NCBI GenBank assembly: GCA_963835915.1
Contig: CAWIHE010000004.1
Span: 696,248-760,247 of the forward strand
Length of the DNA stretch: 64,000 bases
Direction: 5' to 3'
Origin: Candidatus Uhrbacteria bacterium
Lineage (GTDB): Bacteria > Patescibacteriota > Patescibacteriia > 2-12-FULL-60-25
The notes beneath the pieces are model-generated. The model saw only the letters and a program-made list of their open reading frames with translations. It was not told the DNA's origin and did no database searches. Each line of letters begins with the position of its first letter. The first letter of the stretch is position 1. Positions 1 through 19,380 of this stretch are shown here, one piece after another. The position numbers and the translations under genes are program-made.

Positions 1-1076
1 ACCAGCCCTTCATCACGAGCGACGCGAATGGGCCCAAGCACCTGCTCCTCAAGATGACGCGCGCAAAGCTCGAAGAGCTCGTCGGCAGTCTCGTCGTAAA
101 GACGCTCGAGCCGTGCAGGAAGGCGCTCGCGGACGCAAAGCTCTCGGCGTCCGACCTCCACGAGGTCATTCTCGTCGGCGGGATGACGCGGATGCCGCTC
201 GTCCAGCAGGAAGTCGAAAAGTTTTTCGGCAAGAAACCGAACGTGACCGTGAATCCGGACGAGGTCGTCGCGCTCGGCGCGGCGGTCCAGGCGGGCAACC
301 TCCAGGGCGACATCAAAGGCGATCTCCTCCTGCTCGACGTGACGCCGCTTTCGCTCGGCCTTGAGACGTACGGCGGCGTCTTCACGAAGATCATCGAGCG
401 GAATACGACGATCCCGACGTCCAAATCACAGGTCTTCTCGACGGCGTCCGACGGCCAGCCGAGCGTCGAGGTCCATGTCCTCCAGGGCGAGCGCGAGATG
501 GCCGGCGACAACCGTTCGCTCGGCCGGTTCATGCTGAGCGGCATTCCGCCCGCGCCGCGCGGCGTCCCGCAGATCGAGGTCACGTTCGATCTCGACGCGA
601 ACGGGATCCTGAACGTGAAAGCGAAGGACCGTGCGACGAACAAGGAACAGCAGATCACGATCACGGCGTCGACGAACCTCTCGAAAGACGAAGTCGAACG
701 GATGAAGAAGGAGGCGGAGGCGAACGCGGAGTCCGACAAGAAGCGTCGGGAGTCCATCGAGATCAAGAATATGGGCGAGACGATGGTCTACACGACGGAG
801 AAGATGCTGAAGGAGGCCGGCGATAAGGTGACGGCGGATGAGAAGAAGCCGGTTGAGGAACAACTCGAAGAACTCAAGACGGCGCTCAGAGGCGAGGATG
901 TCGAGGCGATCAAGCGCGCATCGGATGCGCTCGCGACCGCCGCGCAAGCCGTCGGTGCGAAGATGTATGAGCAGGCAAAATCAGCCGGAACGGACTCGAC
1001 AGATTCTGCTGGATCTGCAGACGGTCAGCCTGGGGACAATTCCGGCCCGGTCGAAGGTGATTTTTCGCAGAAATAA
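1..1076 (+). CDS. dnaK: Molecular chaperone DnaK (Hsp70), C-terminal ~357 aa; 5' end outside window
   Basis: Frame is open from nt 3 ([27 protein letters not shown]). Substrate-binding-domain motifs [11 protein letters not shown] and [26 protein letters not shown]. Acidic tail; TAA at 1074-1076. Confidence 0.95.
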
Positions 1077-1113
1077 GCCCCTTAAAGCCGTCCACGAACG
1101 GGTGTTTGTGGCG

Positions 1114-1119
1114 TACAAT
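1114..1119 (+). promoter_or_regulatory. Candidate -10 box TACAAT, 10 nt upstream of ATG 1130
   Basis: gcgTACAATagagtgcagtATG. It lies downstream of the TTG (1106) used by the ORF track, which favours ATG 1130 as the start. Confidence 0.35.
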
Positions 1120-1129
1120 AGAGTGCAGT

Positions 1130-2020
1130 ATGAAAAAGAAGAAGGCGAAGACGGGGGCGAAGAAGAGGGCGGGCAGGCGGATTGTCGTCAAGCACGCAAG
1201 CAGGACGCGGACAGCGGCAAAACGGGCCATCAAAAAGCGCGCGAAGATCGTTCGGCGGCAGCCCAAGAAGAAGTCACGAGTCACCCTCCTCCGCCAAGGC
1301 TCCGGGGGGCGCACGAGTCACGAGTCACGAGTAGGGGCACGCCGCGCGCGCCCGAAACAAAAAAAGACGGTCGTGGCGGTTGTGGCGGAGGCGCCGAGCG
1401 GGACGTTGTTTCCGTACGGGATCAAGCGGCATGGGGATCTCGCATGGCATCTCGCGCAGTTCGAGCGATCGTTGAAGAAGTTCAGCGAGGAGGATAAGGA
1501 AGTCCTGCGGCGCGCGCTCAAGTTCGCGAAAGAGCGTCACGAGACGCAGGTTCGGAAAGACGGGTCGCCGTTCATCATCCATCCGGTCAGGATCGCGAAC
1601 ACGATAGCATCCGAGTGGGGGATCCATGAGATGCCGATCATTGCGGCGGCGCTCCTCCATGACGTCATCGAGGATACGCAGACGACGATCCGCGAGGTGA
1701 AGGACGGGTTCGGCGAAGGGATCGGGAAGCTCGTGGACGGACTCACGATGTGGCCGGGCAGCGAAACGCCGGAAGTCTACCTGAAACGCGTCGCGCGCGG
1801 TCCGCGGGAGCTCCGCATCGTCAAGTGCGCGGACGTGCTGGACAACCTCCGTTCGTGGCACGAGTGCCGCGAAGGGATCGCGGACCAATTCACGCGGTGG
1901 TGGCGCCAGGCGCACGACTTCGCGCTCCCCATGGCCGAGTCCACGCTCGACGTCGCCGCAAAACGGATCCGCGAGATCGTCGAGGACCCGTGGTACCTGA
2001 AGAAGGCGAACATGGTCTAG
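1130..2020 (+). CDS. HD-domain protein (RelA/SpoT-type (p)ppGpp hydrolase-like) with a ~90-aa poly-basic N-terminal tail
   Basis: HD motif region RHETQVRKDGSPFIIHPVRIA ... AALLHDVIEDT. N-terminus MKKKKAKTGAKKRAGRR. The start is uncertain (TTG 1106, ATG 1130, or in-frame GTGs near 1373). Confidence 0.7.
   Translation: MKKKKAKTGAKKRAGRRIVVKHASRTRTAAKRAIKKRAKIVRRQPKKKSRVTLLRQGSGGRTSHESRVGARRARPKQKKTVVAVVAEAPSGTLFPYGIKRHGDLAWHLAQFERSLKKFSEEDKEVLRRALKFAKERHETQVRKDGSPFIIHPVRIANTIASEWGIHEMPIIAAALLHDVIEDTQTTIREVKDGFGEGIGKLVDGLTMWPGSETPEVYLKRVARGPRELRIVKCADVLDNLRSWHECREGIADQFTRWWRQAHDFALPMAESTLDVAAKRIREIVEDPWYLKKANMV
1273..1332. repeat. GTCACGA heptamer repeats (family D), in frame within the N-terminal tail of the HD protein
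   Basis: gtcacgagtcac at 1273-1284 and cacgagtcacgagtcacgagt at 1312-1332. The same unit occurs at 22054-22179, 33103-33133 and 57934-57963. Confidence 0.8.
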
Positions 2021-2994: not shown

Positions 2995-3053
2995 GTTAAT
3001 AGTACAGAGTATGTAGTAATAGTAGGACGCGCGGATCCATTCTGAACTATCAA

Positions 3054-3076
3054 CTACAAACTACAAACTACAAACT
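3054..3076. repeat. Tandem heptamer CTACAAA x3 upstream of dnaJ
   Basis: ctacaaactacaaactacaaact, preceded by tagtaatagtagga (family E-like arm). Confidence 0.8.
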
Positions 3077-3081
3077 GAGCC

Positions 3082-4158
3082 ATGCCCCGCGACTACTACG
3101 AAATCCTCGGCGTCCCGAAAGGTGCGAGCGAAGACGATCTGAAAAAAGCCTTTCGCAAGAAGGCCCATGAATTGCATCCGGACAAGGGCGGGGATGAAAA
3201 GGCGTTCAAAGAAGTGAACGAGGCGTATCAGGTGCTCGGCGATGCGAAGAAGCGCGCCGCGTACGACCAATTCGGCCATGCGGCGTTCCAGCAAGGCGGC
3301 GCAGGTGCCGGTCCGCAGGGATTCGGCGGATTCAACGTCAACTTCGAGGACATGGGCGACCTCGGCGACCTCTTCGGGAACATGTTCGGGTTTGGAGGGG
3401 CGGGCGGGACGTCTCGCGGCGGACAGAGGCGTCGCGGGAACGATGTCGAAGTCCGCGTCGAGATCACGTTCATGGAAGCCGTCCGCGGCACGGAGAAGAC
3501 CGTGAGCTATCGCGCATTGACGGCCTGCGAGGCGTGCGGAGGATCAGGAGCCGAAAAAGGGTCCAAGACGGTCTCATGTCCCGCGTGTAAGGGTTCAGGA
3601 CGCGTCACGCGCCTCCAGCAGACGATCCTCGGATCATTCCAGACCGTCGCCGCGTGCGAGAAGTGCCGTGGCACGGGATCCGTCCCCGAGCGGACGTGTC
3701 CATCCTGCCACGGGAACGGTGTCATCGGCGCGAACCGGACGTTCTCCGTGTCGATTCCCGCCGGCATTGATGACGGCGAGTCGATCAGGGTCTCGGGATC
3801 CGGTGAAGCGGCGCCACACGGCGGAGCCGCTGGCGACCTCTACGTCCACGTCCGCGTGAAAGTAGATTCGAGGTTCACGCGCGAAGGGAATGACGTTGTG
3901 AGCGAGGCGTATGCGCCGATGTCGGCGTTCGCGCTCGGAGGGAAGATCGACGTCGAAACCGTTGACGGTCCCGTCGAACTGAAAGTCCCGGCAGGGACGG
4001 ATGCCGGAACCGTCTTCCGGCTCCGCGGCAAAGGGATCCCATACCTGCGAAGCCACTCGCGCGGAGATCACCTCGTCACGCTGAAGCCGGAAATTCCAAA
4101 AAAGCTTTCGCGCGAACAGCGGAAGCTCCTTGAGGGACTCTCTGGTATGGGGCTCTAA
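3082..4158 (+). CDS. dnaJ: Co-chaperone DnaJ (Hsp40)
   Basis: J domain DYYEILGV...HPDK, G/F-rich linker, four CxxCxGxG zinc-finger repeats ([32 protein letters not shown]). Confidence 0.97.
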
Positions 4159-6700: not shown

Positions 6701-8695
6701 ATGAAAAAGTTTCAGGGTTTGGTTTTGGCCGTCTTCGGCTCCGCCCTGGCACTTGCTTGTGGCGGCACCGGAGATGCAAATAACAATCTTCACACGGTTC
6801 TTGCCTGCGAAGTCATTGATGGCGGAAGCTGTGTGAATGGCGCGGCTGGCATGAATACAGCCGGCGCAGCGGGCGATAGCGCTGTCAATCCTGGAAGCGA
6901 TTCCGGCGTTGGCGGGAACGCACCCTCGACTGGCGGCAAAGCTTCGTCCACCGGCGGTAATCAATCTACTGGCGGATCGGCTCAAGCAGGCGCGTCCCCG
7001 CAAGGCGGACAAGCGCCCGGCACGGGCGGCAACGCCCCTTCGACTGGCGGGTCTTCACCGCAATCAACCGGCGGATCCACTCCGGCTTCGACTGGTGGAA
7101 ATCAGTCGACGACGGGCGGTTCCTCGCCTCAAGCGACGGGTGGCTCAAATCCGGCAACGGGTGGGAGCAATCCGGGAACCGGCGGATCCACTCCGCAGTC
7201 TACGGGCGGCAACGCCCCTTCGACTGGCGGGTCTTCACCGCAATCGACTGGCGGATCCACTCCTGTCTCGACTGGTGGAAATCAGTCGACGACGGGCGGT
7301 TCCTCGCCTCAAGCGACGGGTGGCTCAAATCCGGCAACGGGTGGGAGCAATCCGGGAACCGGCGGCAGTTCGCCGCAATCCACAGGTGGCAACCAATCTA
7401 CCGGCGGAACCTCTACCGGAGGAACTGCGACGGGTGGAAGCAAAACCGGTGGAACCTCGACGGGTGGAAACGCCCCTAGCGGGGGCAGCGGCCCCACTTC
7501 TACCGGCGGCACCGCCACAGGCGGCATGGGAACGGGTGGAATCGCAACGGGCGGAACTGCTCCTGCGTGTGTCCCCAGCCCACGTCCGGCCCTAGTGCCG
7601 GATAACGGGCCGGCGATTCATTGCACGGTCACACCGGATTCGACGTTCCCGGCAACTCAACACCTGAATGGAGAGATCCAGTGTCTGCCCTCGGGCGACT
7701 GCTTCCTTCTTTCTGGTACTGAAGCAAGGAATCACCAGATTCTACGCAAGACAAACGGAGCGTGGGCTCCGGAAACGCTTCCCGCCTCGCTCTTCCCGGG
7801 TGATGCCGAAACATACAACCTGTGGTTCTACGGAATCTCAGGGACGCGTCTCGACAACATGTGGGCAGTCGGCGCAAATAGGCCGGTTGCGATCATCCGG
7901 CGAGCCGCGGATGGCACGTGGTCTGAGCAGACCAATGGCCTCGTCTCCAAGACTGGGTGGAATATCCGATGGGCCCAGTCAATCTGGGCGTCAGAAGATA
8001 GTGCTTTCGTGACCACGGAAGAGACCAACCCCTGCCCGAACGGCTGCACGACTGCACAGGCGCAAGAAACCGATGCAGGCATCTATCAGTGGGTCGGTTC
8101 TAGCTGGAAGGCAATGGATCTACCTGCTCACGAGAAGCACATCGGCCTCCAGAAGATCTGGGGGACGTCCAACACTGACGTATTCGCAGTGGGCTGCATC
8201 TTTGATGCGCAGCCTGACTCGGGCACGTTCCAGTCCTGCATTCGTGGAGTGCTTTGGCACTATGACGGGTGCACGTGGTCGGATCTTACGGGTTCCGTGC
8301 CTCAAGACGTAAGAGCCTTGAACGGTGTCCACGGAAGCGGTGGACATATCGTAGTCGTTGGTGCTGCCATCACGGCTGATAGAGATCGGCCAGTCAGGCT
8401 GTTTTCCACCGACTTGAATCAGTGGCAGAGGTCTGACGGGACGATCCGGGCAGGCGATGGGCCAGTCTGGATGGCTGGCGCAAATAACATATACGTAGGC
8501 AGTACGCTCGAGGATGCTGCCGGAAACGACGTGATCGATGGTGCTAGAGTCACGCTCCTTAGTAATGGGGCTTGGCAGCAGCCGGTATATACCGGAGGGT
8601 CTGCCGACGAAGTCGTGTCGGGAATTTCAGTAGGCAGTGCTCCATACATTGCCACTCAGGGCTCATCCGGAGCCCGCGTGTATACCTGTCAGTAA
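6701..8695 (+). CDS. Secreted lipoprotein with a long (S/T)TGG-type Gly/Ser/Thr/Pro repeat linker and a globular C-terminal domain (possibly beta-propeller)
   Basis: Strong SD gaGAAGGAGAcgaccATG. Signal peptide plus lipobox MKKFQGLVLAVFGSALALAC|GG. Dozens of xSTGG repeats. The C-terminal half has recurring W/F-x-V-G strands (MWAVGA, VFAVGC, IVVVGA). Confidence 0.75.
   Translation: MKKFQGLVLAVFGSALALACGGTGDANNNLHTVLACEVIDGGSCVNGAAGMNTAGAAGDSAVNPGSDSGVGGNAPSTGGKASSTGGNQSTGGSAQAGASPQGGQAPGTGGNAPSTGGSSPQSTGGSTPASTGGNQSTTGGSSPQATGGSNPATGGSNPGTGGSTPQSTGGNAPSTGGSSPQSTGGSTPVSTGGNQSTTGGSSPQATGGSNPATGGSNPGTGGSSPQSTGGNQSTGGTSTGGTATGGSKTGGTSTGGNAPSGGSGPTSTGGTATGGMGTGGIATGGTAPACVPSPRPALVPDNGPAIHCTVTPDSTFPATQHLNGEIQCLPSGDCFLLSGTEARNHQILRKTNGAWAPETLPASLFPGDAETYNLWFYGISGTRLDNMWAVGANRPVAIIRRAADGTWSEQTNGLVSKTGWNIRWAQSIWASEDSAFVTTEETNPCPNGCTTAQAQETDAGIYQWVGSSWKAMDLPAHEKHIGLQKIWGTSNTDVFAVGCIFDAQPDSGTFQSCIRGVLWHYDGCTWSDLTGSVPQDVRALNGVHGSGGHIVVVGAAITADRDRPVRLFSTDLNQWQRSDGTIRAGDGPVWMAGANNIYVGSTLEDAAGNDVIDGARVTLLSNGAWQQPVYTGGSADEVVSGISVGSAPYIATQGSSGARVYTCQ
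7023..7382 (+). repeat. Near-perfect 180-bp tandem duplication (2 copies, 60 aa each) inside the lipoprotein linker
   Basis: cgggcggcaacgccccttcgactggcgggtcttcaccgcaatc recurs at 7023 and 7203; the copies differ at only a few positions by eye. Confidence 0.85.
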
Positions 8696-8725
8696 GCCCC
8701 CTCCGAAAGAGAGGGGGATCGGACT

Positions 8726-8760
8726 AGGCGGCATCGCTATTGCGTGCCGCCTTTTCTGTT
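8726..8760 (+). terminator. Rho-independent terminator after the lipoprotein gene
   Basis: aggcggca-tcgctattgcg-tgccgcct followed by ttttctgtt. An additional small hairpin ccccctc/gaggggg sits at 8697-8717. Confidence 0.7.
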
Positions 8761-8761
8761 G

Positions 8762-8770
8762 TGGTATAAT
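8762..8770 (+). promoter_or_regulatory. Extended -10 promoter element TGgTATAAT, 10 nt upstream of ATG 8781
   Basis: gtTGgTATAATaattaacagtATG; there is no SD between the -10 box and the start. Confidence 0.55.
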
Positions 8771-8780
8771 AATTAACAGT

Positions 8781-11700
8781 ATGAAACGATTTACACAGAA
8801 GTACACCGTGCCAGTTATTGTATTTATTGCAATACTTGCCGCGGGTGTCAAATTTGTATCAGCACAATACTACGGGCCAACAGCTTCTCCGCCTGGGAAT
8901 AATCCGCTTGGGCCGGTCTGGCTTCAAACAGCGGCAACGCCTGGCCACCAATCTGGAAAGATTGATATATCGGGTGCGGCTGGAAGTGACATCTATTTGT
9001 TTAGCAACAGCGCAATTCGTGCCGACTTGACTTCGGGAAACAGTTCAATAAATATTTCGAACTATGGAAATACTCCAACTGGTTTTACCTTGAATGTAAA
9101 AGGAGATCTAAAGATCCTATCGGGTCTCACGGGCACAACGGGAAATCTCTACGTCCCCCAAATCTGTCTCGGTGCCGCAGGAAGTGAAGTCTGTCGCACC
9201 ACCTGGCCCTCGGGCAGTGGCGGTACGCTCACGGGCGGAGGAACGGCGAACTACGTTCCTCTCTGGTCAGGGGCGACAACACTCGGAAATTCGTCCATCT
9301 ATCAGGATGCGAGCAATCGAATCGGGATCGGAACCTCAAGTCCGGCGGAGAAGCTGCATATCGTAGGTGCGGGAGGAGAAGACGGCATTGTCGTAGATGC
9401 GGCGACATATCCGGAAATCGTTTTTGATCGAACCGGTGTGCACAAGGCATATCTGGGTATCGCCGGAACCGCCGGAGGTTATGCGGCGGGATCATTGGCG
9501 GATTCTCTCGTACTTCGTTCGCAAAACGCGCTCCATCTCGTTTCAAATGCCTCCACGATTGGCTTGACGGTAAATGGTGGGAATGTCGGCATCGATACAA
9601 CGACTCCGGCGGCAGAAGTTCAGATCGCCGATATTGGAGCCGCAGGGACGAAGAACTTGATGGTCGGGGACGACACCTACTTTACGGATCTTGATTGGGG
9701 AAACGCGCTCGGATTGTACGGAGTATATGATTCGTCAATTGGGATCTTGCAGCTTGGGAGTAGCGCAGGCGCGAACATCACTGGAGCAGCTGGGCACATC
9801 GGAATCACGACGGCAAATTTCAATATCACGCCGGCAGGCAGACTGACCATCGCGGGTCAGGGGGGTTCTGCGGCGAACGATGGAATCGAGTTTTTTACAA
9901 CGACCAACGGGAGCGGGTACAGCGGATGGGCGGGCCGGGAATTCATCGATGTGCCGTCCGGCGGCTGGGGCACGGCGCCGTACGTGTTCTCTGTTCCGAA
10001 TACGTCAGGGGTCGAGGTGAAGACGATGACGCTGCTTAACGGCAGGGTCGGCGTTGGGACCCAGGCGCCCGCCGTGAAGCTCGATGTCGTTTCGACTGCG
10101 GAGGGAGCTGCGATCAGCGGAGTTGCTTCAAATGCGCTTAGCACAGGAGTCGAAGGAACCGGTGTACTCTACGGCGTCTGGGGAACCGGCACGGGGGGGG
10201 TGTATGGCATTGGGAGCTCGGCCGGCGTCATCGGGTCTGCGCAGTCGGCGGCCGGAGGCGGCGGAGGAATACTCGGAGACGCTGGACTTGGAGTCGTCGG
10301 GACTGCGGGGGCGCTGGCAAATGCTTCGTCGTTAGGCCATGCCGGAGGTTACTTTACGTCGCTAGAAGGTTCCGGGGCTTTGAGATCGAGTTTTGCCTTT
10401 GCGGCGGCGACTCCTGATGAAGGGTATGGCGGATTCGGTGGAATCGTCGGTCTCGGAGACGATTACGGAGGAAGGTTCTATCAATACCATCAGGGTGGAT
10501 CGTACGTGAACATGGCTACGCTCGGAACGCCATCTTACTCCGGTGATTTCGCGGGTCCGGTGAACTTGAACTCGAACAACATCGTCAACGTGGCGAGCAT
10601 CCAGAACAGCGGCATTGTCTTAACGCCCCAGAATATCGGAGGAGACAACGGACTTCTTTTGAAGAATACCGGCGGGGTAAATAACGACACGGATCTCCAA
10701 TTCATGGATGGGGGCGGTAATTCCAATAATATCCGTTGGGAAACTCGGTCGGGCGCGACTTTTGCTCAGCAGCCGGAATGGCAGATCGGAAACGCCGGCG
10801 ACCCCACACTGCTGATCGGGCCGAAGGCCGGTTCAGCGGGAGTCGTAAAAATTCGCGGTTTCTTACAGATAAGCTGTCCGTCCTGCACTTACAACGCTCA
10901 ATTTTCACAGCCCACCAATCCGGGAACGGCTGTTTATCCTCTGAATACCGCGAGTGGCTATTACGCAAATATCGGCAACGGTGACTCGTCGGCCATGTTC
11001 GTCGGTCCCGTGGGCATTAACATCGGGGGCGGCTCAACGAATAGTGGTGCGGCGCCCGCGGCGGGGCTCGAAGTCGGCACCGGGGGGAAGCCGAACGCCG
11101 CGCAGTTCGACGGGTCGGTGAACATGAATAGCAACAACATTCTGAACGTCGCGTCAATGCAGGCGAATGGCGTGTCCGAATACCTCCAGAACATCGGTGG
11201 CGATAACGGTGTTCAGTTCTATAACACGTCGGTCGATATCTCCGACCTGCAATTAAAAACGAGCACCGGGAAGTTGAGTAACATCCGACTTCAAAACGCA
11301 GGAGGGATGTACACGGGAAATACGGAATTGCAGATCGGGAAATCCGATTATGCGCCGCTCGTCGTCGAGGCAAGGCAGGACAACACGATCGGAAAAGTCG
11401 CCGTTCGCGGATTGATGGGCATCGGGACAGGGTCACCGACCGTTCCGTTGGATGTCGTTGGGAGCGCAAACGTGTCGGTCTCAGGGTGGGCCTATACGAG
11501 TACTGGCGTTACGGGGGCGTTCAATACCAGCGTTCCCGTCGCGATCAGGACAACGACTGGCCGCATCCTTGCACAGGGTGGCGAGATCGACGTTGCCTCG
11601 GATGGACGCGCAAAAGACATCCAGAGCCGCCTTTCAAGCAAGGAGTCGCTCGACAAGATCATGAAATTGAGCCCGGTCGATTACAAGTGGAAGTACAACA

Positions 11701-11948
11701 CCGATAAAGCTGATCACCTCGGTCTCATCGCGCAGGAGGTTGCCAAAGTCATTCCCGAAGCGCTGACGATCGTCGACGGAAAGATCAACGGCAAGGACGT
11801 TCCTGACTTCCACATGCTCGACTACAACGAAGTCGGCATCGTGGCGATCGGCGCCATCCAGGAACAGCAGAAGGAAATCGACTCCTTGAAAGCGCAGAAC
11901 GCCGATCTCTTGAAACGGGTGGAGGCGCTCGAGGCGAAAGTGAAGTGA
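8781..11948 (+). CDS. Large (1055 aa) cell-surface fibre / tail-fibre-like protein with a C-terminal peptidase S74 intramolecular-chaperone domain
   Basis: ATG 8781 gives the signal/anchor MKRFTQKYTVPVIVFIAILAAGVKFVSAQ. Gly/Ser/Thr/Asn-rich body with internal repeats (NLNSNNIVNVASIQNSG / NMNSNNILNVASMQANG). C-terminus: SDGRAKDIQ...LSPVDYKWKYN...HLGLIAQEVAKVIPEAL plus a terminal coiled coil. Confidence 0.85.
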   Translation: MKRFTQKYTVPVIVFIAILAAGVKFVSAQYYGPTASPPGNNPLGPVWLQTAATPGHQSGKIDISGAAGSDIYLFSNSAIRADLTSGNSSINISNYGNTPTGFTLNVKGDLKILSGLTGTTGNLYVPQICLGAAGSEVCRTTWPSGSGGTLTGGGTANYVPLWSGATTLGNSSIYQDASNRIGIGTSSPAEKLHIVGAGGEDGIVVDAATYPEIVFDRTGVHKAYLGIAGTAGGYAAGSLADSLVLRSQNALHLVSNASTIGLTVNGGNVGIDTTTPAAEVQIADIGAAGTKNLMVGDDTYFTDLDWGNALGLYGVYDSSIGILQLGSSAGANITGAAGHIGITTANFNITPAGRLTIAGQGGSAANDGIEFFTTTNGSGYSGWAGREFIDVPSGGWGTAPYVFSVPNTSGVEVKTMTLLNGRVGVGTQAPAVKLDVVSTAEGAAISGVASNALSTGVEGTGVLYGVWGTGTGGVYGIGSSAGVIGSAQSAAGGGGGILGDAGLGVVGTAGALANASSLGHAGGYFTSLEGSGALRSSFAFAAATPDEGYGGFGGIVGLGDDYGGRFYQYHQGGSYVNMATLGTPSYSGDFAGPVNLNSNNIVNVASIQNSGIVLTPQNIGGDNGLLLKNTGGVNNDTDLQFMDGGGNSNNIRWETRSGATFAQQPEWQIGNAGDPTLLIGPKAGSAGVVKIRGFLQISCPSCTYNAQFSQPTNPGTAVYPLNTASGYYANIGNGDSSAMFVGPVGINIGGGSTNSGAAPAAGLEVGTGGKPNAAQFDGSVNMNSNNILNVASMQANGVSEYLQNIGGDNGVQFYNTSVDISDLQLKTSTGKLSNIRLQNAGGMYTGNTELQIGKSDYAPLVVEARQDNTIGKVAVRGLMGIGTGSPTVPLDVVGSANVSVSGWAYTSTGVTGAFNTSVPVAIRTTTGRILAQGGEIDVASDGRAKDIQSRLSSKESLDKIMKLSPVDYKWKYNTDKADHLGLIAQEVAKVIPEALTIVDGKINGKDVPDFHMLDYNEVGIVAIGAIQEQQKEIDSLKAQNADLLKRVEALEAKVK
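11598..11945 (+). other. Peptidase S74 (endosialidase / tail-fibre intramolecular chaperone, auto-cleaving) domain
   Basis: By eye it matches the family hallmarks S-D-x-R-x-K, L-x-P-V-x-Y-x-W and G-(L/F)-I-A-Q-E-V. Confidence 0.8.
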
Positions 11949-12454: not shown

Positions 12455-13867
12455 ATGTTAAAAATCTACAACACCCTGACCCGCCGCATTGAGCCGATAA
12501 CTCCCATCACCGCAGGGAAGATCGGCTTTTACGCGTGCGGCCCCACGGTCTACCAGCGCGCGCACATCGGCAATCTCCGCGCCTACATCATGGAAGATAT
12601 CCTCCGGCGGACGCTCGAGCTGATCGAGGGGGACGAGGTGAAGCACGTGATGAACATCACGGACGTCGGCCATCTGATCGGTGACGAGAGTTTGGGCGAG
12701 GACAAGGTTGAGAAGTCGGCGCGCGAGCAGGGGAGGGATGCATGGGAGATCTCGCGCGAGAATACGGAGACGTTTTTGAAGGACCTCGATGCGATCAACG
12801 TCCTGCGTCCGACGGCGATGCCGAAGGCGACGGATCACATCCAGGAGCAGATTGATCTCGTAAAGATTCTTGAGGAGAAGGGATTCACGTATAAGATTAC
12901 CGACGGCATCTACTTCGATACGTCGAAATTTCCGTCGTACGGATCTCTCTCGGGCCAGAAGCTCGATGAGAAGGAGGCGGGCGCGCGCATCGAGGCGAAT
13001 CCCGAGAAGAAGAATCCGACGGACTTCGCGCTCTGGAAATTCTCTCCGTCCCACTCACCCACTCATCCACTCATCCACTTACCCAAACGGCAGATGGAGT
13101 GGAAGTCGCCGTGGGGCGTCGGGTTCCCCGGATGGCACATCGAATGCTCGGCGATGAGCCGGAAGGAGCTTGGTCAGCCGTTCGATATCCATGCGGGAGG
13201 CGTCGACCACATCGCGGTCCACCACGAGAATGAGATTGCGCAATCCATGGCTGCGTACGGTGTCTCGCTCGCGAATTATTGGATGCACGTTGAGTTCCTC
13301 ATGGTCGACGGGAAGAAGATGTCAAAGTCGATCGGGAATACGTACACGCTGGATGATCTCAAGGCGAAGGGGATCGATCCGATTGCGTTCCGCTTCTTCG
13401 TCCTTGGCGCACACTACCGATCCAAACAGAACTTCACATGGGAGGCGATCGCCGGCGCGCAGAGCGCGATGGATAAACTTCGGCGCGCCGTTCGGTCATG
13501 GCAGAAAGCGGACGGCGAAGGCGTCGGCGCGGTCGAAGAGGAATTCCGGAATGCGATGCTGAACGACCTCAATACGCCGGAAGCGCTCGCGATTCTATGG
13601 AAGCTCGTAGACGGGGATTTCGCGACACAGGCGAAATCAACATCCCTCCTCTTTATCGATCGCATCCTCGGCCTCAATCTTTCGGCGATCATCAGCATTC
13701 CCTTCGATGTACCGAAAGACATCAAAAAAATTGCCGATCTCCGCTGGGCCGCGCGCAAGAACGGCGACTGGGACGAAGCAGACAAGCTCCGCCAAGAGCT
13801 CGCGGGGCACGGGTGGACAATGCTTGACGGGAGGGACTCGTACTCGCTGGAGCCGGATAGTCGGTAG
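12455..13867 (+). CDS. cysS: Cysteine--tRNA ligase
   Basis: GFYACGPTVYQRAHIGNLR (HIGH region), GWHIECSAM, KMSKS. Carries an in-frame repeat-encoded insert SPSHSPTHPLIHLP. Confidence 0.95.
   Translation: MLKIYNTLTRRIEPITPITAGKIGFYACGPTVYQRAHIGNLRAYIMEDILRRTLELIEGDEVKHVMNITDVGHLIGDESLGEDKVEKSAREQGRDAWEISRENTETFLKDLDAINVLRPTAMPKATDHIQEQIDLVKILEEKGFTYKITDGIYFDTSKFPSYGSLSGQKLDEKEAGARIEANPEKKNPTDFALWKFSPSHSPTHPLIHLPKRQMEWKSPWGVGFPGWHIECSAMSRKELGQPFDIHAGGVDHIAVHHENEIAQSMAAYGVSLANYWMHVEFLMVDGKKMSKSIGNTYTLDDLKAKGIDPIAFRFFVLGAHYRSKQNFTWEAIAGAQSAMDKLRRAVRSWQKADGEGVGAVEEEFRNAMLNDLNTPEALAILWKLVDGDFATQAKSTSLLFIDRILGLNLSAIISIPFDVPKDIKKIADLRWAARKNGDWDEADKLRQELAGHGWTMLDGRDSYSLEPDSR
13050..13084 (+). repeat. 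Family H octamer repeat (CCACTCAT-like), in frame inside cysS
   Basis: ccactcacccactcatccactcatccacttaccc. The same unit forms the hairpin at 62230-62307 and recurs in dnaG at 63670-63708. Confidence 0.8.
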
Positions 13868-13920
13868 TTAGTAGTAATAGTAGGAAATGTCTCATGCGTC
13901 CTACTACATACTACATACTA
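13865..13920. repeat. Family E hairpin downstream of cysS
   Basis: tagttagtagtaatagtagga - loop - tcctactacatactacatacta (~17/21 complementary). Confidence 0.7.
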
Positions 13921-13928
13921 AATAAAGG

Positions 13929-13985
13929 GCCCGATACGTCCGTACACACCATCCGGAGGGGTGGATGAGAGATGACGTATCGGGC
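13929..13985 (-). terminator. Long-loop hairpin downstream of the tRNA pair (terminator-like)
   Basis: gcccgatacgtc (13929-13940) pairs with gacgtatcgggc (13974-13985). The minus strand continues cctttattt. Confidence 0.45.
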
Positions 13986-13989
13986 TTCG

Positions 13990-14062
13990 AAGGGGAGCGA
14001 GGGATCGAACCTCGGACATCCAGACCTGGTGACTGGTGCTCTACCGACTGAGCTACTCCCCT
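13990..14062 (-). tRNA. tRNA, most consistent with tRNA-Trp (CCA) but with a non-canonical anticodon loop
   Basis: Hand fold: acceptor AGGGGAG/CTCCCCT, D arm GCTC-AGTCGGTA-GAGC, T arm CGAGG-TTCGATC-CCTCG, anticodon arm CCAGT-CACCAGG-TCTGG (A at position 33, U31-U39 mismatch). No encoded CCA. Confidence 0.7.
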
Positions 14063-14087
14063 TTAAGGAAAGAACGATTCCGTTCGG

Positions 14088-14162
14088 CCCCGGCAGATGG
14101 ATTTGAACCACCGTCTCAGAATTCCACCGAATCCCGCGCTCTAACCGCTAAGCTATGCCGGT
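14088..14162 (-). tRNA. tRNA-like gene; anticodon not assignable by hand
   Basis: Acceptor (A)CCGGCA/TGCCGG(G) with an A1-G72 mismatch, D arm GCTT-AGCGGTTA-GAGC, T arm GGTGG-TTCAAAT-CCATC. The 25 nt between them (GCGGGATTCGGTGGAATTCTGAGAC) do not give a canonical 5-7-5 anticodon arm. Confidence 0.55.
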
Positions 14163-14223
14163 AAACGTGCGCGCCGGTATTCAATCAGGCCTCCTTGGAA
14201 AAGTCAACAAGTCAACGTATATA

Positions 14224-14266
14224 TAAAAAAACGGCCTCGCCCTCGAGTACGAGAGTAAGGCCGTCA
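14224..14266 (-). terminator. Rho-independent terminator closing the ATP-grasp operon
   Basis: Minus strand: gacggcct...aggccgt followed by ttttttt (plus-strand A-run at 14225-14230). Confidence 0.75.
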
Positions 14267-14291
14267 GGTGATGGATCGCGGGACCCGGGGT

Positions 14292-14435
14292 TCAATCGTC
14301 GCGGCGACGAGGATGCCCACAGCGAGTATGAAATGACGTCGGGTCGATGAGTTCGGCCTCGGGAACGTCCTTTCTCCTCACCAACTCGGGTTCTGGATCA
14401 GGTTTTTCAGCGAATTGTACTAGGAAGGGCAGCAT
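14292..14435 (-). CDS. Putative graspetide (omega-ester RiPP) precursor peptide, 47 aa; not in the ORF track
   Basis: Hand translation: MLPFLVQFAEKPDPEPELVRRKDVPEAELIDPTSFHTRCGHPRRRDD*. SD aAAGGAAtactgaccATG. Starts 35 nt after the upstream gene's stop; the terminator follows. LPFLVQF resembles the microviridin leader motif PFFARFL. Confidence 0.6.
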   Translation of the reverse strand: MLPFLVQFAEKPDPEPELVRRKDVPEAELIDPTSFHTRCGHPRRRDD

Positions 14436-14469
14436 GGTCAGTATTCCTTTCTTGACATTTGCGCCAAAA

Positions 14470-15201
14470 TCAGGATAGCAGACGAGCGATCTCTGTCAAG
14501 CTCCTCGGATTCCGGGACGGATCGGCTCGCGGAATCGTAATCACGATATCATAAAATATGTCCGGATCTTCTCTCTGTGAGCACGCTTGCCTCACCGCTC
14601 GGCTTTTCCCATTGACGTCTATTTTTCCTTGTTGATATGACAATAGCATTGAGAATACGGAGAATTTCTTTTTCAATAATGATGCCATTGAAGTTCGACT
14701 GATATGGTTCTTCGTATTGACTACATATCTTGCGTGAATATTCCCCGTCTCAACGAGGATCGTTGATCGTGGATTACGTTTTTTGTACCTGCACAATGAG
14801 TCCGCCATCTTGCGTTCATGATCCTTGCTTCCAAGGACGTTATCAAACGTGTGCACATCAATCCGGTTATGGTGCGCACGGTTATATCCGCGTATCCATT
14901 TTAACAGAGCAATATGTTCATACGTAAAACGACCGTCGGAATGTAAAAAAAATGTCGTGAGTTGCGAGGGAACGCTTCCTCCGTACACGTAACGTCGAAG
15001 CGCATTCCGTTGTGCGTCGGACAACTCCCATTCGAAGGCAGCCGTACAGGGGCGAGATCCGGCCAGGATGGCACGCAAACACCTTTGCACAAACGGCCCA
15101 TTTTGTTTTGCGCCGTGCATTTCGCCGATTAATATAAAATCATGCGATTTTCTTAATACTGAAGACAGCGGCGTCGGTGTGCGTAACGAGATTCTTTTCA
15201 T
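14470..15201 (-). CDS. ChaN / Tiki / erythromycin-esterase superfamily protein
   Basis: Superfamily motifs in order: ILIGEMHG, FEWE, ERKMADSL, LVETGNIHARY. ATG 15201 (MKRISL) is preferred because it avoids overlapping the upstream gene; the ORF track extends to 15270. Confidence 0.6.
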   Translation of the reverse strand: MKRISLRTPTPLSSVLRKSHDFILIGEMHGAKQNGPFVQRCLRAILAGSRPCTAAFEWELSDAQRNALRRYVYGGSVPSQLTTFFLHSDGRFTYEHIALLKWIRGYNRAHHNRIDVHTFDNVLGSKDHERKMADSLCRYKKRNPRSTILVETGNIHARYVVNTKNHISRTSMASLLKKKFSVFSMLLSYQQGKIDVNGKSRAVRQACSQREDPDIFYDIVITIPRADPSRNPRSLTEIARLLS

Positions 15202-15260
15202 CGTCTCATTATATAACAAATGAGTCCGCGGCGGGTGCCGTGGACTCAACGACATAGGTT

Positions 15261-16187
15261 TCAGAGACACAAGAGGTCGATAAAAGGATCAATGAGATTG
15301 ACGCCAGTCATATATTGCAACCACAGCCATTGGCCGTTGGGATTGAGTTCCAAGAAAACGGGCTCACTATCGTCTATGATGGCGAAGTCAATCGCTCCGA
15401 ACTCCAAGCCATAGAATGACATGAGGGTGCGTACCTTCGCGGCAACTGATCCATCGAGTTCATGACGTTCATGTTCGATCTGACTCAATTTCAGTTGTTT
15501 CAGGTCATCCGCCTTTGCTCTGGCTGTAAGCCGGAACGAATAGAGATCCGTACCAAACACGACGACTCTGATCTCGGATTTTATTATCAGTTGTTCTTGG
15601 GCGTAGCACGGAGAGAATGCCAGAGCAGACTCAAAGAATTCCCGGGGAAGCTTTCGAGTCCCGATAACCAGCGCGTCGTCCTTCGCTCCGATGACTTGGG
15701 CCTGAATCGGCTTCGCGACAATCTGTTCATGGTGTTGCGCGGCAAATTCCTCCAACGCTTCCAGGCTTGTCGTTACAAGCGTATCGGGAATGCGCAGTCC
15801 AAGTTCCTTCGCACGTTGGAGCTGGGCGATTTTTGTTCTTGCCGCGGCGATGCTCTCTCTTCGATTCACCCAACGGCAGTTTTGGTATAAAGCGAGGATG
15901 GAATTGAATAGACCCTCGGTTTCCTCACGTACGAATGCCTGCGAGACGGAGGTTCCTTCCGGGAGAACCACTTTTCTATACCATACCGTGGAAATTTCCG
16001 GGACGAACCACGATGTGCACATTGGTTCATCTGTTGATGCGCAAATGCGCCAGCTACGACGTTGTGACGCGAACACGTCACTATCAAGGCGAAATGTCGG
16101 GACCGAGCGTTCTTCAAGTCGCCTGCAGACCTCCGTCACGTGCGCATCATCAGTATTGCTTACGGCTAAGATACTCTTTTGCTGCAT
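15261..16187 (-). CDS. Microviridin-type (MdnB/MdnC-like) ATP-grasp peptide ligase
   Basis: Matches to the MdnC sequence as I recall it: FRLDSDVF (FRFDTDRF), STVWYRK (SAVWYRR), KIAQLQRAKELGLRIPDTLVT (KQLQLQVARQLGLLIPGTLTS), EIRVVVFG, YGLEFGAIDFAIIDDSEPVFLELNPNGQWLWLQ (FGLNYGAIDMIV...IFLEINPVGEFFWLE). SD aaAAGGAAGataaaATG. Confidence 0.8.
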   Translation of the reverse strand: MQQKSILAVSNTDDAHVTEVCRRLEERSVPTFRLDSDVFASQRRSWRICASTDEPMCTSWFVPEISTVWYRKVVLPEGTSVSQAFVREETEGLFNSILALYQNCRWVNRRESIAAARTKIAQLQRAKELGLRIPDTLVTTSLEALEEFAAQHHEQIVAKPIQAQVIGAKDDALVIGTRKLPREFFESALAFSPCYAQEQLIIKSEIRVVVFGTDLYSFRLTARAKADDLKQLKLSQIEHERHELDGSVAAKVRTLMSFYGLEFGAIDFAIIDDSEPVFLELNPNGQWLWLQYMTGVNLIDPFIDLLCL

Positions 16188-16261
16188 TTTATCTTCCTTT
16201 TTAAGGATCAGACCTCATTTGGGTTATCATGAATCGTAGAGGATGTCAATACCCGCGCCCG

Positions 16262-16270
16262 TGATACAAT
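16262..16270 (+). promoter_or_regulatory. Extended -10 element TGaTACAAT, 6 nt upstream of ATG 16277 (leaderless-type)
   Basis: gTGaTACAATgaggccATG. Confidence 0.5.
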
Positions 16271-16276
16271 GAGGCC

Positions 16277-16810
16277 ATGTCAAACGGCGTGCCGTCACCG
16301 GAGATCCAGAAGGCGCCGGAGGCTCCCGTAGAAGAGAGTGCGGATTCGAGTTCCGTTGCCGCGGATCGGAAAACGTACGAGCAGTCCGCCGAATACGAGG
16401 ACGCGATTTTGCATGCCGAGGCGGGGACGGAGCTGGAAGCGGCACAGGCCACGCACGTCGCGCCCGTGAAGCCGCCGGCGCCCGCGGCGCAGGTCCAAGG
16501 AGAGAAGGACGAAGTCGTCATCGAGGTCGAGAAGATCCTTGAGGAGGGGATTGGCCCGTTCTATGCGTCGCTTCCGCCGGAGGCGAAGCCCGTATTCAAG
16601 AAGCGCGGGGAGGAAGTCGCCACGCAGATCGCAGAGATGGTCCGGCGGATGCACCTAAAGGTCCGCAAGGTCGTACGGCTCATCGCGGAATGGCTGAAGA
16701 TGATTCCGGGCGTGAATGCGTACTTCCTTGAGCAGGAAGCGAAGATCAAGGCGGACATGCTGAAGGAACTCATCGACGCGCGTAAAGAAGACGCCGAGCG
16801 GACCGTATGA
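16277..16810 (+). CDS. Hypothetical protein (acidic N-terminus, C-terminal amphipathic/hydrophobic segment)
   Basis: 177-aa ORF whose stop overlaps the start of the downstream ATPase (ATGATG at 16807). Confidence 0.6.
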   Translation: MSNGVPSPEIQKAPEAPVEESADSSSVAADRKTYEQSAEYEDAILHAEAGTELEAAQATHVAPVKPPAPAAQVQGEKDEVVIEVEKILEEGIGPFYASLPPEAKPVFKKRGEEVATQIAEMVRRMHLKVRKVVRLIAEWLKMIPGVNAYFLEQEAKIKADMLKELIDARKEDAERTV

Positions 16811-19380
16811 TGCTCTTCGCATTTCAGGCGGATCTCATGACGGAGGGCGCGGGGACGCCGATCTCCGCGGCGAGCGACATGGTCGGCGCGGCCTTCGCGA
16901 ATCCGTTCGTGAGCACGGCCGTGCTCCTCGTCGTCATCATTGTCGCGGTCGTCATTCTCGCGCGTATCCTCCGCGTCGTCATGCGGAAGAGTAAGCGCGC
17001 ACATACGGCGATCGGAACGGCGGTCCTGAAGGTCACCGTGCCGAAAGACGTGAACCGTAACGGCAACGCCGACGAGGCGGGGACGCACAAGGTCCAGGAG
17101 CTCATCTCCGTCATGGAGACGGTGTTCCAGACGTTAGGGTCGCTCAAGGCGCAGAAAGGGCTTGCCCCGTGGCTCTTCGGGAGGACGGACGAATTCTCCT
17201 TCGAGATCGTCTACGAGCGGAACAAGATCCGCTTCTACGTTGTCGTTCCAGGCGGGTACAAGCATTTCATCGAGGAGCAGGTCCATGCGCAGTTTTCGGA
17301 TGCGGAGATCGAGGATGTCCCGGACTACAACATCTTTACGCCGACGGGCGTGATCCTAGGGAGCTACCTCGTGTTCCGGCGTGCGAGCATGTTCCCGGTG
17401 AAGACGTACGACAAACTCGAATCCGACCCGCTGAATTCGCTGACGAATGCGCTCGCAAAGCTCGGCGAGGGCGAAGGGGCCGCGTTGCAGGTCATCGTCC
17501 GTTCCGCGCCGTCCAGGTGGCGGAAAGAAGGTCTCCGAGTCGCGCGCGCCATGCAACAGGGGAAGAAACTCTCCGACGTCCAGTCCGCGGGTGGCGCGAA
17601 AGGCATGGCGGGCTCGATTGGGAAGGATTTTAAGAGCGTCGCATTCGGATCCCCGAAGAAGGAAGGCGAGAAGGAGCCGTATCGGCTCTCGCCGCTCGAA
17701 GAGGAGATGATTAAGGGATTGGAGGAGAAAGCGTCGAAAGCGGGGCTCCAGGCGAACATCCGCATCGTCGTCTGTGCCAAGACGCCGGCGCGGACCCAGC
17801 AGGCGCTGAACGACATCCTCCAGTCGTTCGGCCAGTACAACGTGTACGAGTACGGCAACTCATTCGTCAAATCGATGCCGAAGTTCCGGAAGAAGCTCAT
17901 CGAGTCGTTTATCTATAGGACGTTTGACGAAGGTCGCTCAATCGTCATGAACAGCGCGGAGCTCGCGTCGATCTACCACTTCCCGCTCCCGACGACCGAG
18001 ACGCCGAAGATCGACTGGCTCCTCGCGCGGAAAGCGCTTCCGCCGTCGAACATCCCCGACGAGGGGATCGTCCTCGGCTACTCGGAGTACCGCGGCCACC
18101 GGTACACGATCCGGATGCTCCAGCAGGACCGCCAGCGGCACATGTACATCATCGGGAAGTCCGGCACGGGAAAGACCCAGCTCCTGAAGAGTCTCATCAA
18201 GCAGGATATCGAGGCGGGACGCGGCGTGTGCGTGATGGACCCGCATGGCGATCTCGCACGGGAAGTCCTCGCGCTCGTCCCGCGCGAGCGCGCGGACGAT
18301 GTCATCTTCTTCTCGCCGGGCGATACCGAGCGTCCGCTCGGATTGAACATGCTCGAGTACGACCAGTCGAAAGTCGAATCGAAAGAGCGCGTCGTCGGTG
18401 AGATGCTGAAAATCTTCGACCGGCTGTTCGACCTCAAATCGACCGGCGGACCGATGTTCGAGTACTACATGCGGAACGCGCTCCTCCTCATCATGGACCA
18501 CCCGGAGAGCGGATCGACCTTGCTCGAGATCCCGCGCGTCCTCGCGGACGAGGAGTTCCGCCGGTTCAAGCTCTCGAAGTGCAAGAACCAGCAGGTGAAG
18601 GATTTCTGGATTAAGGAGGCGCAGAAGGCCGGCGGTGAAGCCGCGCTCGCGAACATGGTGCCCTACATCGCGTCAAAGCTCGCGCCGTTCATCTCGAACG
18701 AGATCATGCGCCCGATCATCGGCCAGCAGCAGAGCGCCTTCAACGTGCGCGAGGCCATGGACTCGCAGAAGATCCTCCTCCTCGATCTCGCGAAGGGCAA
18801 GCTCGGCGACATCAGCGCGTACCTCATCGGTATGGTCCTTGTCGGGAAGATCCTGAACGCGGCGCTCGAGCGCGGCGACATGGACCCGAAAGACCGCAAG
18901 GATTTTTACCTCTACATCGACGAGTTCCAGAACTTCCTCACGGATTCGATCAGCGCGATCCTCTCCGAGGCGCGGAAGTACGGGCTCGATCTCATCGTGG
19001 GCCACCAGTTCATCGGCCAGCTCGAGAAGATGAAGGAGATCCGAGATGCGATTTTCGGGAACGTCGGCTCGATGTTCGCGTTCCGCATCGGGCCGGAAGA
19101 CGCGGAGTTCGTCGTGAAGGAGTTTAAACCCGTGTTTACCGAGTACGATCTCGTGAACGTCGAAGCGTACACGTGCAACGCGAAGATCCTCATCAACAAC
19201 ACGGCGTCGCGCCCGTTCAACATGCACCCGATCATGGTCACGGATCCGCCGGACACGGAGCTCATGGAGCTGATCAAAGAACTCTCCCGCTACAAGTACG
19301 GCCGCCGCCGCCAGCTCGTCGAAGCGGAAATCCAGGAACGCGCATCTGCGATTGAGGCGATGATTGATGATGTCGATTAG
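16807..19380 (+). CDS. TraD/VirD4/TraG-like (type IV coupling protein family) membrane P-loop ATPase
   Basis: N-terminal TM helix (VLLVVIIVAVVILARIL), Walker A IIGKSGTGKTQ, Walker B FYLYIDEFQNF, C-terminal SEARKYGLDLIVGHQFIGQL. Confidence 0.6.
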   Translation: MMLFAFQADLMTEGAGTPISAASDMVGAAFANPFVSTAVLLVVIIVAVVILARILRVVMRKSKRAHTAIGTAVLKVTVPKDVNRNGNADEAGTHKVQELISVMETVFQTLGSLKAQKGLAPWLFGRTDEFSFEIVYERNKIRFYVVVPGGYKHFIEEQVHAQFSDAEIEDVPDYNIFTPTGVILGSYLVFRRASMFPVKTYDKLESDPLNSLTNALAKLGEGEGAALQVIVRSAPSRWRKEGLRVARAMQQGKKLSDVQSAGGAKGMAGSIGKDFKSVAFGSPKKEGEKEPYRLSPLEEEMIKGLEEKASKAGLQANIRIVVCAKTPARTQQALNDILQSFGQYNVYEYGNSFVKSMPKFRKKLIESFIYRTFDEGRSIVMNSAELASIYHFPLPTTETPKIDWLLARKALPPSNIPDEGIVLGYSEYRGHRYTIRMLQQDRQRHMYIIGKSGTGKTQLLKSLIKQDIEAGRGVCVMDPHGDLAREVLALVPRERADDVIFFSPGDTERPLGLNMLEYDQSKVESKERVVGEMLKIFDRLFDLKSTGGPMFEYYMRNALLLIMDHPESGSTLLEIPRVLADEEFRRFKLSKCKNQQVKDFWIKEAQKAGGEAALANMVPYIASKLAPFISNEIMRPIIGQQQSAFNVREAMDSQKILLLDLAKGKLGDISAYLIGMVLVGKILNAALERGDMDPKDRKDFYLYIDEFQNFLTDSISAILSEARKYGLDLIVGHQFIGQLEKMKEIRDAIFGNVGSMFAFRIGPEDAEFVVKEFKPVFTEYDLVNVEAYTCNAKILINNTASRPFNMHPIMVTDPPDTELMELIKELSRYKYGRRRQLVEAEIQERASAIEAMIDDVD

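Follow-up and report, generated by a model that had tools for sequence, protein, structure and literature searches.

The question raised by this locus was whether a 47-amino-acid (aa) open reading frame (ORF), unannotated in its source genome, encodes the substrate of the ATP-grasp ligase encoded beside it. The ORF lies on the minus strand at 14292..14435 of a 64,000-nucleotide (nt) stretch of a Candidatus Uhrbacteria bacterium genome (GCA_963835915.1, contig CAWIHE010000004.1, positions 696,248 to 760,247), referred to as the window, and had been proposed in an initial annotation as a candidate precursor peptide. The favoured reading, given a probability of about 0.75, was that the ORF encodes the precursor of a minimal three-gene cassette for a graspetide-type peptide made on the ribosome and modified after translation (RiPP) in Patescibacteria (candidate phyla radiation, CPR). 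The proposal was strengthened by a conserved leader and core found next to a homologue of the graspetide macrocyclases. The cassette was read on the minus strand in the order ATP-grasp ligase, TIKI-like hydrolase and peptide, with the peptide as the last gene, and its features were as follows:

15261..16187, minus strand: ATP-grasp peptide macrocyclase homologue, 308 aa, whose stop overlaps or abuts the hydrolase gene start
14470..15270, minus strand: hydrolase of the TIKI/erythromycin-esterase/ChaN superfamily, 266 aa if begun at a GTG, or 261 aa if begun at the ATG at 15255, the form of database protein P0003
14292..14435, minus strand: candidate 47-aa precursor peptide gene, stop codon included (translation, homologues and purifying selection)
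14409..14429, minus strand: putative leader recognition motif P3-F-L-V-Q-F-A9 (family consensus PF[LI][LVIM]xxA)
14334..14408, minus strand: acidic, Pro-rich variable linker, residues 10-34 (sequence and length variation across homologues)
14295..14333, minus strand: invariant C-terminal core F35-HTRCGHPRRRDD-47, with candidate cross-link residues T37, C39, D46 and D47

Peptide gene and its homologues

Translation of the ORF gave MLPFLVQFAEKPDPEPELVRRKDVPEAELIDPTSFHTRCGHPRRRDD followed by a stop, in exact agreement with the coordinates and the peptide first proposed. An ORF of this size alone means little because dozens of 30-60-aa ORFs occur in the same G+C-rich stretch. In a scan of 13800..16900, it was the sole small ORF near the ligase gene with a leader-like motif, out-of-frame matches aside. 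These were two further leader-like small ORFs, both overlapping the ligase or hydrolase genes out of frame and without homologues, and they were rejected. No second copy of the peptide was found in the 64-kb window. The exact peptide was not found among about 15 billion predicted proteins, in which both neighbouring proteins of the same 1,017,555-bp contig were present.

A genome search with the ligase alone returned five close loci in metagenome-assembled genomes (MAGs) of Patescibacteria and Kaiserbacteria, with ligase identities of 46-66%. Loci found in this way, through the ATP-grasp protein and without use of a peptide core pattern, are referred to as unbiased. All five (5/5) contained the ligase gene, a TIKI-like gene and then a small ORF homologous to the window peptide, in that order, and with the window included, a peptide homologue was present in 6/6 unbiased loci. 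A metagenome scan with the pattern FHTR[CS]GHPR added 12 loci, in which the TIKI-like gene and the ligase gene lay upstream of the peptide wherever flanking sequence existed, L010 excepted. The groundwater assemblies 'Hain-H41' and 'Hain-H51' were among those that contained the family. An unbiased hidden Markov model (HMM) search of 1.84 billion representative proteins returned 19 clusters of the family (40-59 aa) and one unrelated protein, the 214-aa repeat protein P0031 with QHTRCGK repeats. Overall, about 34 distinct peptide homologues of 40-59 aa were obtained. A tblastn match (LPFLMKVGDDSDP...) upstream of distant Nitrospira ligases (L006 and L007) was antisense to a 215-aa ORF, lacked the core and was set aside as a chance match.

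The homologues differed in annotation status. The peptide gene was already called in L025, sat in an uncalled gap in L021 (ligase identity 49%) and lay beneath an annotated antisense ORF in L024 (ligase identity 46%). This 119-aa opposite-strand ORF of L024 (4203..4562; GCA_017891565.1, JAAVJM010978443.1) was annotated exactly over the peptide gene (MNDQQERPTVPFLLDRADQ...FHTRCGHPRHRDD) and is probably a mis-annotation.

The family began with 0-12 residues followed by PF[LI][LVIM]xxA, in which P, F and A were invariant and the residue after F was L (I in the consensus) throughout alignment A1 and all sequences of the HMM search. The linker was acidic and hypervariable in both sequence and length, with every indel in frame. 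The core, [FM]HTR[CS]GHPRx[RIV]DD with the stop directly after it, was present in every homologue, including those found without the core pattern. The conserved cross-link candidates were T37, D46 and D47, together with C39, which was replaced once by Ser (in L005). The initial annotation had likened the leader to the microviridin motif PFFARFL, and the conserved PF[LI][LVIM]xxA segment bears this out and fits the general signature Phhx(1,2)h. Its list of cross-link residues held for T37, D46 and D47, whereas T33, S34, E26, E28 and D31 fell in the hypervariable linker. The suggested amide at K22 had to be dropped, since K22 is also a linker residue and the family has no conserved Lys. The near-invariant C39 and the strictly co-occurring middle gene of the TIKI superfamily were two features that had gone unremarked.

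At the invariant residues, as many as 5-6 synonymous codons were in use. For the six unbiased loci, the motif codons gave a mean proportion of synonymous differences (pS) of 0.87 (saturated) and a mean proportion of nonsynonymous differences (pN) of 0.17, with pN/pS ranging from 0.08 to 0.33. The peptide ORF is, with near certainty, a real protein-coding gene under purifying selection. Conservation of a small ORF with P-F-L-x-x-(F) beside homologous ligases and conservation of the reading frame in relatives had been named beforehand as the checks to run; the former was found, and the latter was evident from in-frame linker indels and a strong synonymous bias. That the frame lies open between genes by chance, with its conservation owed to a non-coding element, might be suspected from the frequency of ORFs of similar length in G+C-rich DNA and from the failure of gene callers to report the peptide in several records. 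This reading is refuted by the codon diversity at invariant residues and by the low pN/pS at saturated pS, which together rule out a fortuitous ORF as well as a non-coding element. The constant position of the stop after DD and the in-frame linker indels speak in the same direction, and the Rfam scan showed no RNA family over the ORF.

Expression signals of the peptide gene

The following signals were located around the peptide gene:

14444..14450, minus strand: Shine-Dalgarno-like AAAGGAA, 8 nt 5' of the ATG (read from the sequence)
14472..14499, minus strand: sigma-70-like promoter match TTGACA-16-TATCCT with TG, overlapping the 3' end of the upstream gene (consensus scan, 10/12)
14223..14265, minus strand: intrinsic terminator, a 15-bp hairpin (14265..14230) followed by U7 (14229..14223), 26 nt past the peptide stop

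The Shine-Dalgarno-like motif was found where it had been described, at 14450..14444, and GGAG/AGGA-like motifs were also present 5' of the peptide start in loci L001-L005. The stop codon of the upstream hydrolase gene at 14472..14470 leaves a spacer of 34 nt, not the 35 nt first given. The hairpin and T7 run expected about 30 nt downstream correspond to the terminator listed, whose hairpin had a minimum free energy of -30.2 kcal/mol (z = -3.8 against shuffled sequences). Judging from the consensus match, 14472..14499 may be a candidate dedicated promoter of the peptide gene.

ATP-grasp ligase

Comparison with NCBIfam placed the ligase closest to TIGR04187 (4.3e-52, residues 6-306), followed by MvdC (1.6e-38), MvdD (2.9e-35) and grasp-with-spasm (7e-20). 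TIGR04187, the best-scoring family, gave 177 bits against a cut-off of 350, and TIGR04185 (133 bits, cut-off 425) and TIGR04184 (122 bits, cut-off 475) fell far short of theirs. Pfam PF21068 was matched on residues 7-111 at 4.3e-5, under its cut-off; the MvdD-type pre-ATP-grasp domain, detected sub-cut-off in the window ligase, is on record for many members of its clade. Matches in the PDB were MdnB (2.5e-24), MdnC (7e-23), AMdnB, CdnC and PsnB, the best ones all being macrocyclases. Similarity to RimK (2.2e-8) and to the glutathione synthetase families was weak. By sequence, these scores denote homology to the graspetide macrocyclases and not membership in any named subfamily. At this level of homology, the protein is an MvdD/MdnC-type ATP-grasp ligase with a pre-ATP-grasp domain, as is usual for graspetides.

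The ligase clade was discrete, with about 50 clusters at identities of at least 42% and then a drop to 31% or less. The outgroup ligases (identity at most 31%) were accompanied by different, upstream precursors, by ATP-binding cassette (ABC) transporters and by no TIKI gene. Because the clade is discrete and the outgroups differ in precursors, transporters and the TIKI gene, the triad was taken to co-evolve as a unit. In the two nearest outgroup loci (identity about 30%), which also had ABC transporters, L022 carried a 72-aa candidate precursor upstream of the ligase gene (3224..3442) that ends in ...GGYSHQSDD, and L023 carried two tandem 61-aa candidates upstream of the ligase gene (3007..3401) of the form MxMPLPLEL...DDNDxL. 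These candidates look like other graspetide families.

The triad was complete in every related locus with enough flanking sequence, with L010 as the sole exception. In this groundwater contig, a 482-aa insertion sequence (IS)-type transposase (18..1466, minus strand) lay directly upstream of the TIKI-like gene, at the usual place of the ligase gene, and the cassette appears disrupted or rearranged. The cassette contained no transporter, methyltransferase, second ligase or immunity gene. Its distribution was patchy and rare (5/185,579 species representatives, the scan being confined to close relatives).

TIKI-superfamily hydrolase

The middle gene was assigned through weak family scores, invariant residues and a structural model. 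The window hydrolase matched PF04187 (Cofac_haem_bdg, Tiki/ChaN superfamily) with 20 bits against a cut-off of 27.7, and reached the gathering score of neither PF04187 nor PF05139. PF04187 was matched by 10/11 members of the hydrolase family at E <=0.1 (best 1e-6), sub-cut-off where scored, and three homologues weakly matched the erythromycin esterase family. E50, H52, E80 and H179 were invariant. A PDB profile search with six homologues returned Bcr135 (2rad/3b55) as the sole match, with H52 on His-85 and E80 on Glu-113; these residues form the catalytic His-Glu pair within the 2His/2Glu motif of the TIKI superfamily (PMC6254334). With residue roles assigned after that work, the hydrolase carries the complete catalytic 2His/2Glu motif. 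Its His-to-Glu spacing equals that of Bcr135 (H85/E113) and RRSP (H3902/E3930), and E-x-H, a Glu at +28 and a second His at about +100 reproduce the full RRSP pattern (E3900/H3902/E3930/H4030).

An AlphaFold 2 model built on an 11-sequence alignment had a predicted local distance difference test score (pLDDT) of 71.5 and a predicted template-modelling score (pTM) of 0.74. Its top Foldseek matches were Bcr135 (3b55/2rad), HopBA1 (5t09), Bcr136 (2qgm), the C1/C2 domain of PMT (2ebf) and RRSP (5w6l), with E-values from 5.8e-5 and query-normalised TM-scores of 0.38-0.56. All five are members of the TIKI superfamily (PMC6254334). The model thus lends moderate support to a TIKI alpha/beta fold, the fold shared by EreA/EreB, Bcr135/136, Tiki, RRSP, ChaN and HopBA1. 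Members of this superfamily cleave macrolactone esters or peptide bonds. At about 260 aa, the protein is shorter than the Ere proteins (about 400 aa) and, unlike known enzymes of the superfamily, it is dedicated to a RiPP-like cassette. Since its N-terminus is not hydrophobic, it is probably cytoplasmic and without a signal peptide.

Proposed chemistry

By genomic logic, the peptide is quite probably the substrate of the adjoining ATP-grasp enzyme and hence a candidate precursor. As in graspetides, a small co-located peptide combines a leader (PFLxxxA) with a core that offers Ser/Thr/Lys and Asp/Glu residues (T37, D46 and D47). The PFL[LV]xxA segment would be the counterpart of the PFFARFL/Phhx(1,2)h leader, docking on the ATP-grasp enzyme, which would phosphorylate the side-chain carboxylate of D46 or D47 to an acyl phosphate. 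The hydroxyl of T37 would then attack the activated Asp and close a macrolactone of 10 or 11 residues at the very C-terminal end. C39 (Ser39 in one homologue) could form a second link to the other Asp. The cytoplasmic TIKI-like hydrolase, with its His/Glu set intact, would then remove leader and linker as its most plausible role. Less probably, it would open the lactone for control or self-protection, a real alternative given that macrolactone esterases (Ere) belong to the same superfamily. Both options were also put forward for an Ere-like gene at graspetide loci elsewhere (PMC8939145). The rare constancy of the core hints at a single conserved molecular target or product.

The particular lactone between T37 and D46 or D47 would be put at even odds. 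Known ATP-grasp macrocyclases join Thr/Ser/Lys to Asp/Glu, as in the fuscimiditide esters T3-D22 and T7-D18, which include the C-terminal Asp22. A more unusual outcome, considered unlikely, would be that the ATP-grasp enzyme joins Cys39 to Asp as a thioester (thiolactone), or that the ring presents RCGxP as a thiol resembling a cysteine switch, which would make the product the first graspetide to inhibit metallo- or TIKI-type hydrolases; with either variant, a dedicated TIKI-superfamily enzyme would be the maturation or control partner. We know of no characterised graspetide with a Cys-Asp thioester linkage. If either the thiolactone or the cysteine-switch variant were true, CPR bacteria would carry a minimal peptide system with a fixed product, acting intracellularly or against hosts.

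Several observations weigh against the assignment as a graspetide precursor. The core was more conserved than the leader, the opposite of the usual RiPP pattern. With T37, D46 and D47 (plus C39) as the only conserved candidates, the single conserved hydroxyl residue permits at most one canonical ester, and only two precursor clusters have been limited to a single ester (PMC8939145). The ligase scores under the curated cut-off of every NCBIfam graspetide family and under that of PF21068. The precursor lies downstream of the enzymes, whereas it is upstream in the outgroup loci examined and in many described loci. The lack of a transporter leaves the site of action of the peptide ambiguous, and the TIKI-like protein could be a peptidase, an esterase or a partner.

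Alternative explanations

In a rather unlikely explanation, the peptide is a small protein partner of the TIKI-like hydrolase, an in-trans pro-peptide or inhibitor that places Cys39 and His in the active site, while the ATP-grasp enzyme is regulatory or unrelated. The invariant core does hold H-x-x-C-x-H and RCGHP, and peptide and hydrolase co-occur strictly; L010 keeps the two without an adjacent ligase, although its IS insertion marks it as a probably degraded locus. RCGxP also resembles the cysteine switch PRCGxPD of the matrix metalloproteinases, for which the motif PRCGVPD is documented (PMC2989691), but the likeness amounts to four residues and was spotted after the fact. The TIKI-family proteins RRSP and EreB are metal-independent (PMC6254334), and the change of Cys to Ser in L005 suits a nucleophile better than a metal ligand. 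A hydrolase partner would also leave the ATP-grasp-type leader motif and the strict ligase linkage unexplained.

The same invariant core could instead point to a peptide-derived small molecule or cofactor, made after the logic of PqqA or MftA, where the ATP-grasp enzyme cross-links the core and the TIKI hydrolase excises a fixed product. An invariant core with a free linker is the pattern of cofactor precursors, and the core at the very C-terminus stayed constant in about 34 homologues with a freely varying linker; the cassette is also retained in genomes of about 1 Mb and has neither a transporter nor an immunity gene. This explanation is nevertheless very unlikely, as the cassette lacks genes for redox or radical-SAM enzymes, no dependent enzyme was identified, and a patchy, rare distribution is unlike that of an essential cofactor. 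Highly improbable is a ring-free scheme in which the ATP-grasp enzyme does RimK-like tailing and extends the C-terminal Asp-Asp by further amino acids. The acidic end of the peptide and the weak RimK and glutathione synthetase similarities would suit it, but the graspetide maturase matches are far stronger (4e-52 against 2e-8), the pre-ATP-grasp domain is detected (sub-cut-off, as given above), the best PDB matches are without exception macrocyclases, and C-terminal tailing needs no N-terminal leader motif.

Genomic surroundings

Downstream (3') of the terminator were two tRNA genes, the only ones that Rfam found there, followed by a convergent cysS gene. The tRNA gene at 14086..14162 (minus strand) was reported by ARAGORN as 'tRNA-???' with the four-base anticodon ggtg and scored 48.9 bits with the Rfam tRNA model. 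By eye, its anticodon loop was UCGGUGGA, 8 nt long (6 nt with an alternative stem); candidates for the product are a tRNA-His or tRNA-Thr of unusual form, or a tRNA whose anticodon loop is expanded. The gene is adjoined by a tRNA-Trp(CCA) gene (13989..14062, minus strand).

Divergent from the cassette (16277..19380, plus strand) were genes for a 177-aa protein without a family match and for an 857-aa VirD4/TraG-like coupling ATPase (TrwB_AAD_bind 3.8e-11, TraG-D_C 6.5e-5); neither was conserved beside the cassette in other loci. A 664-aa protein (6701..8695, plus strand) had long low-complexity repeats of the STGG(N/S)xP type and, C-terminal to them, a globular part. A protein of 674 aa resembling it was encoded near the cassette in L003 (8809..10833), whose MAG is labelled 'uncultured Gammaproteobacteria' and may be mis-binned or mislabelled, its gene content looking Patescibacteria-like. 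A 1103-aa Gly/Thr/Ser-rich protein (8637..11948, plus strand) had a C-terminal segment reading DGRAKDIQ...LGLIAQEVAKVIPEAL... that leads into a coiled coil. We take this segment to resemble the intramolecular-chaperone (Peptidase_S74) domain of tail fibres and endosialidases.

Significance

Predicted graspetide families already number well above a hundred, and mining has repeatedly missed precursors in CPR loci, of which a 40-59-aa family skipped in several records is a concrete example. The cassette is minimal and easily testable, with one ligase, one hydrolase, a 13-residue invariant core and few possible cross-links. A hydrolase of the TIKI/erythromycin-esterase type strictly tied to a RiPP pathway might define leader peptidases or lactone esterases of a new class. 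The peptide family also adds to the few clues on secondary metabolism and host interaction in the ultra-small Patescibacteria.

Comparison with known graspetide systems

The microviridins (group 1; MdnA/MdnB/MdnC) share with the cassette a homologous ligase, related to both MdnB and MdnC, a leader starting with P-F-(F/L) and the expected Ser/Thr and Asp/Glu chemistry. They have two ligases, whereas the cassette has one and carries no GNAT or ABC transporter. The tricyclic TxKYPSDWEEY-type core with its lactam Lys is likewise absent here, and the leader PFLVQFA is merely similar to PFFARFL.

The TIGR04187 (SAV_5884) ligase family is presumably that of the graspimiditides (fuscimiditide, ThfA/ThfB/ThfM). 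In fuscimiditide the core is also at the C-terminus of the precursor, and Thr-Asp esters that include the terminal Asp enclose a loop of about 10 residues. Graspimiditides have a PIMT-type O-methyltransferase and an Asp-Gly aspartimide site, neither of which occurs in the cassette, and the TIGR04187 score remained below the cut-off, as noted above. Fuscimiditide has no dedicated protease and a far longer leader, whereas a hydrolase is always present here.

The nearest described loci are those of ATP-grasp branches 1 and 2 in CPR bacteria (Makarova et al. 2022, PMC8939145), the same host group. That work had already described, by bioinformatics, graspetide loci of CPR bacteria, the Phhx(1,2)h leader and the occasional Tiki/TraB or Ere-like neighbour, and its authors noted that in many loci the precursor, as a small ORF, could have escaped notice. 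Both branches likewise have a single MvdD-like ATP-grasp protein of about 309-330 aa. The leader studied here fits the general graspetide signature of that work, and the leader of CPR cluster 1472 (MPFALRFAEP) is close to LPFLVQFAEKP. The CPR cores also place Thr upstream of two Asp (TxxxTx(6-10)Dx(1-4)D), as does the core here. A Tiki/TraB-family peptidase occurs in some branch-2 loci (PMC8939145), whereas the pairing with a TIKI-superfamily gene is strict here. The cluster-23 protein (a family of about 167 aa in the alignment of PMC8939145, unrelated to the genes studied here) is reported for every branch 2 locus and frequently for branch 1, but is absent from the conserved cassette, which consists of ligase, TIKI-like gene and peptide. 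Further differences from both branches are a precursor downstream of the enzymes and a core with one conserved hydroxyl plus Cys.

In the available supplement text of PMC8939145, which does not prove absence, the core HTRCGHPRxxDD was not found among the 174 precursor clusters or in the other supplements. Under the same limit, the motif HTRCGHP was not found in the literature searched, including the supplement text of PMC8939145 and PMC13097080. By homology and organisation, the cassette is graspetide-type and follows neither the microviridin nor the graspimiditide nor the cluster-23 pattern. As far as its sequence relationships go, the peptide is most likely a previously unlisted precursor family with a strictly associated TIKI-superfamily hydrolase.

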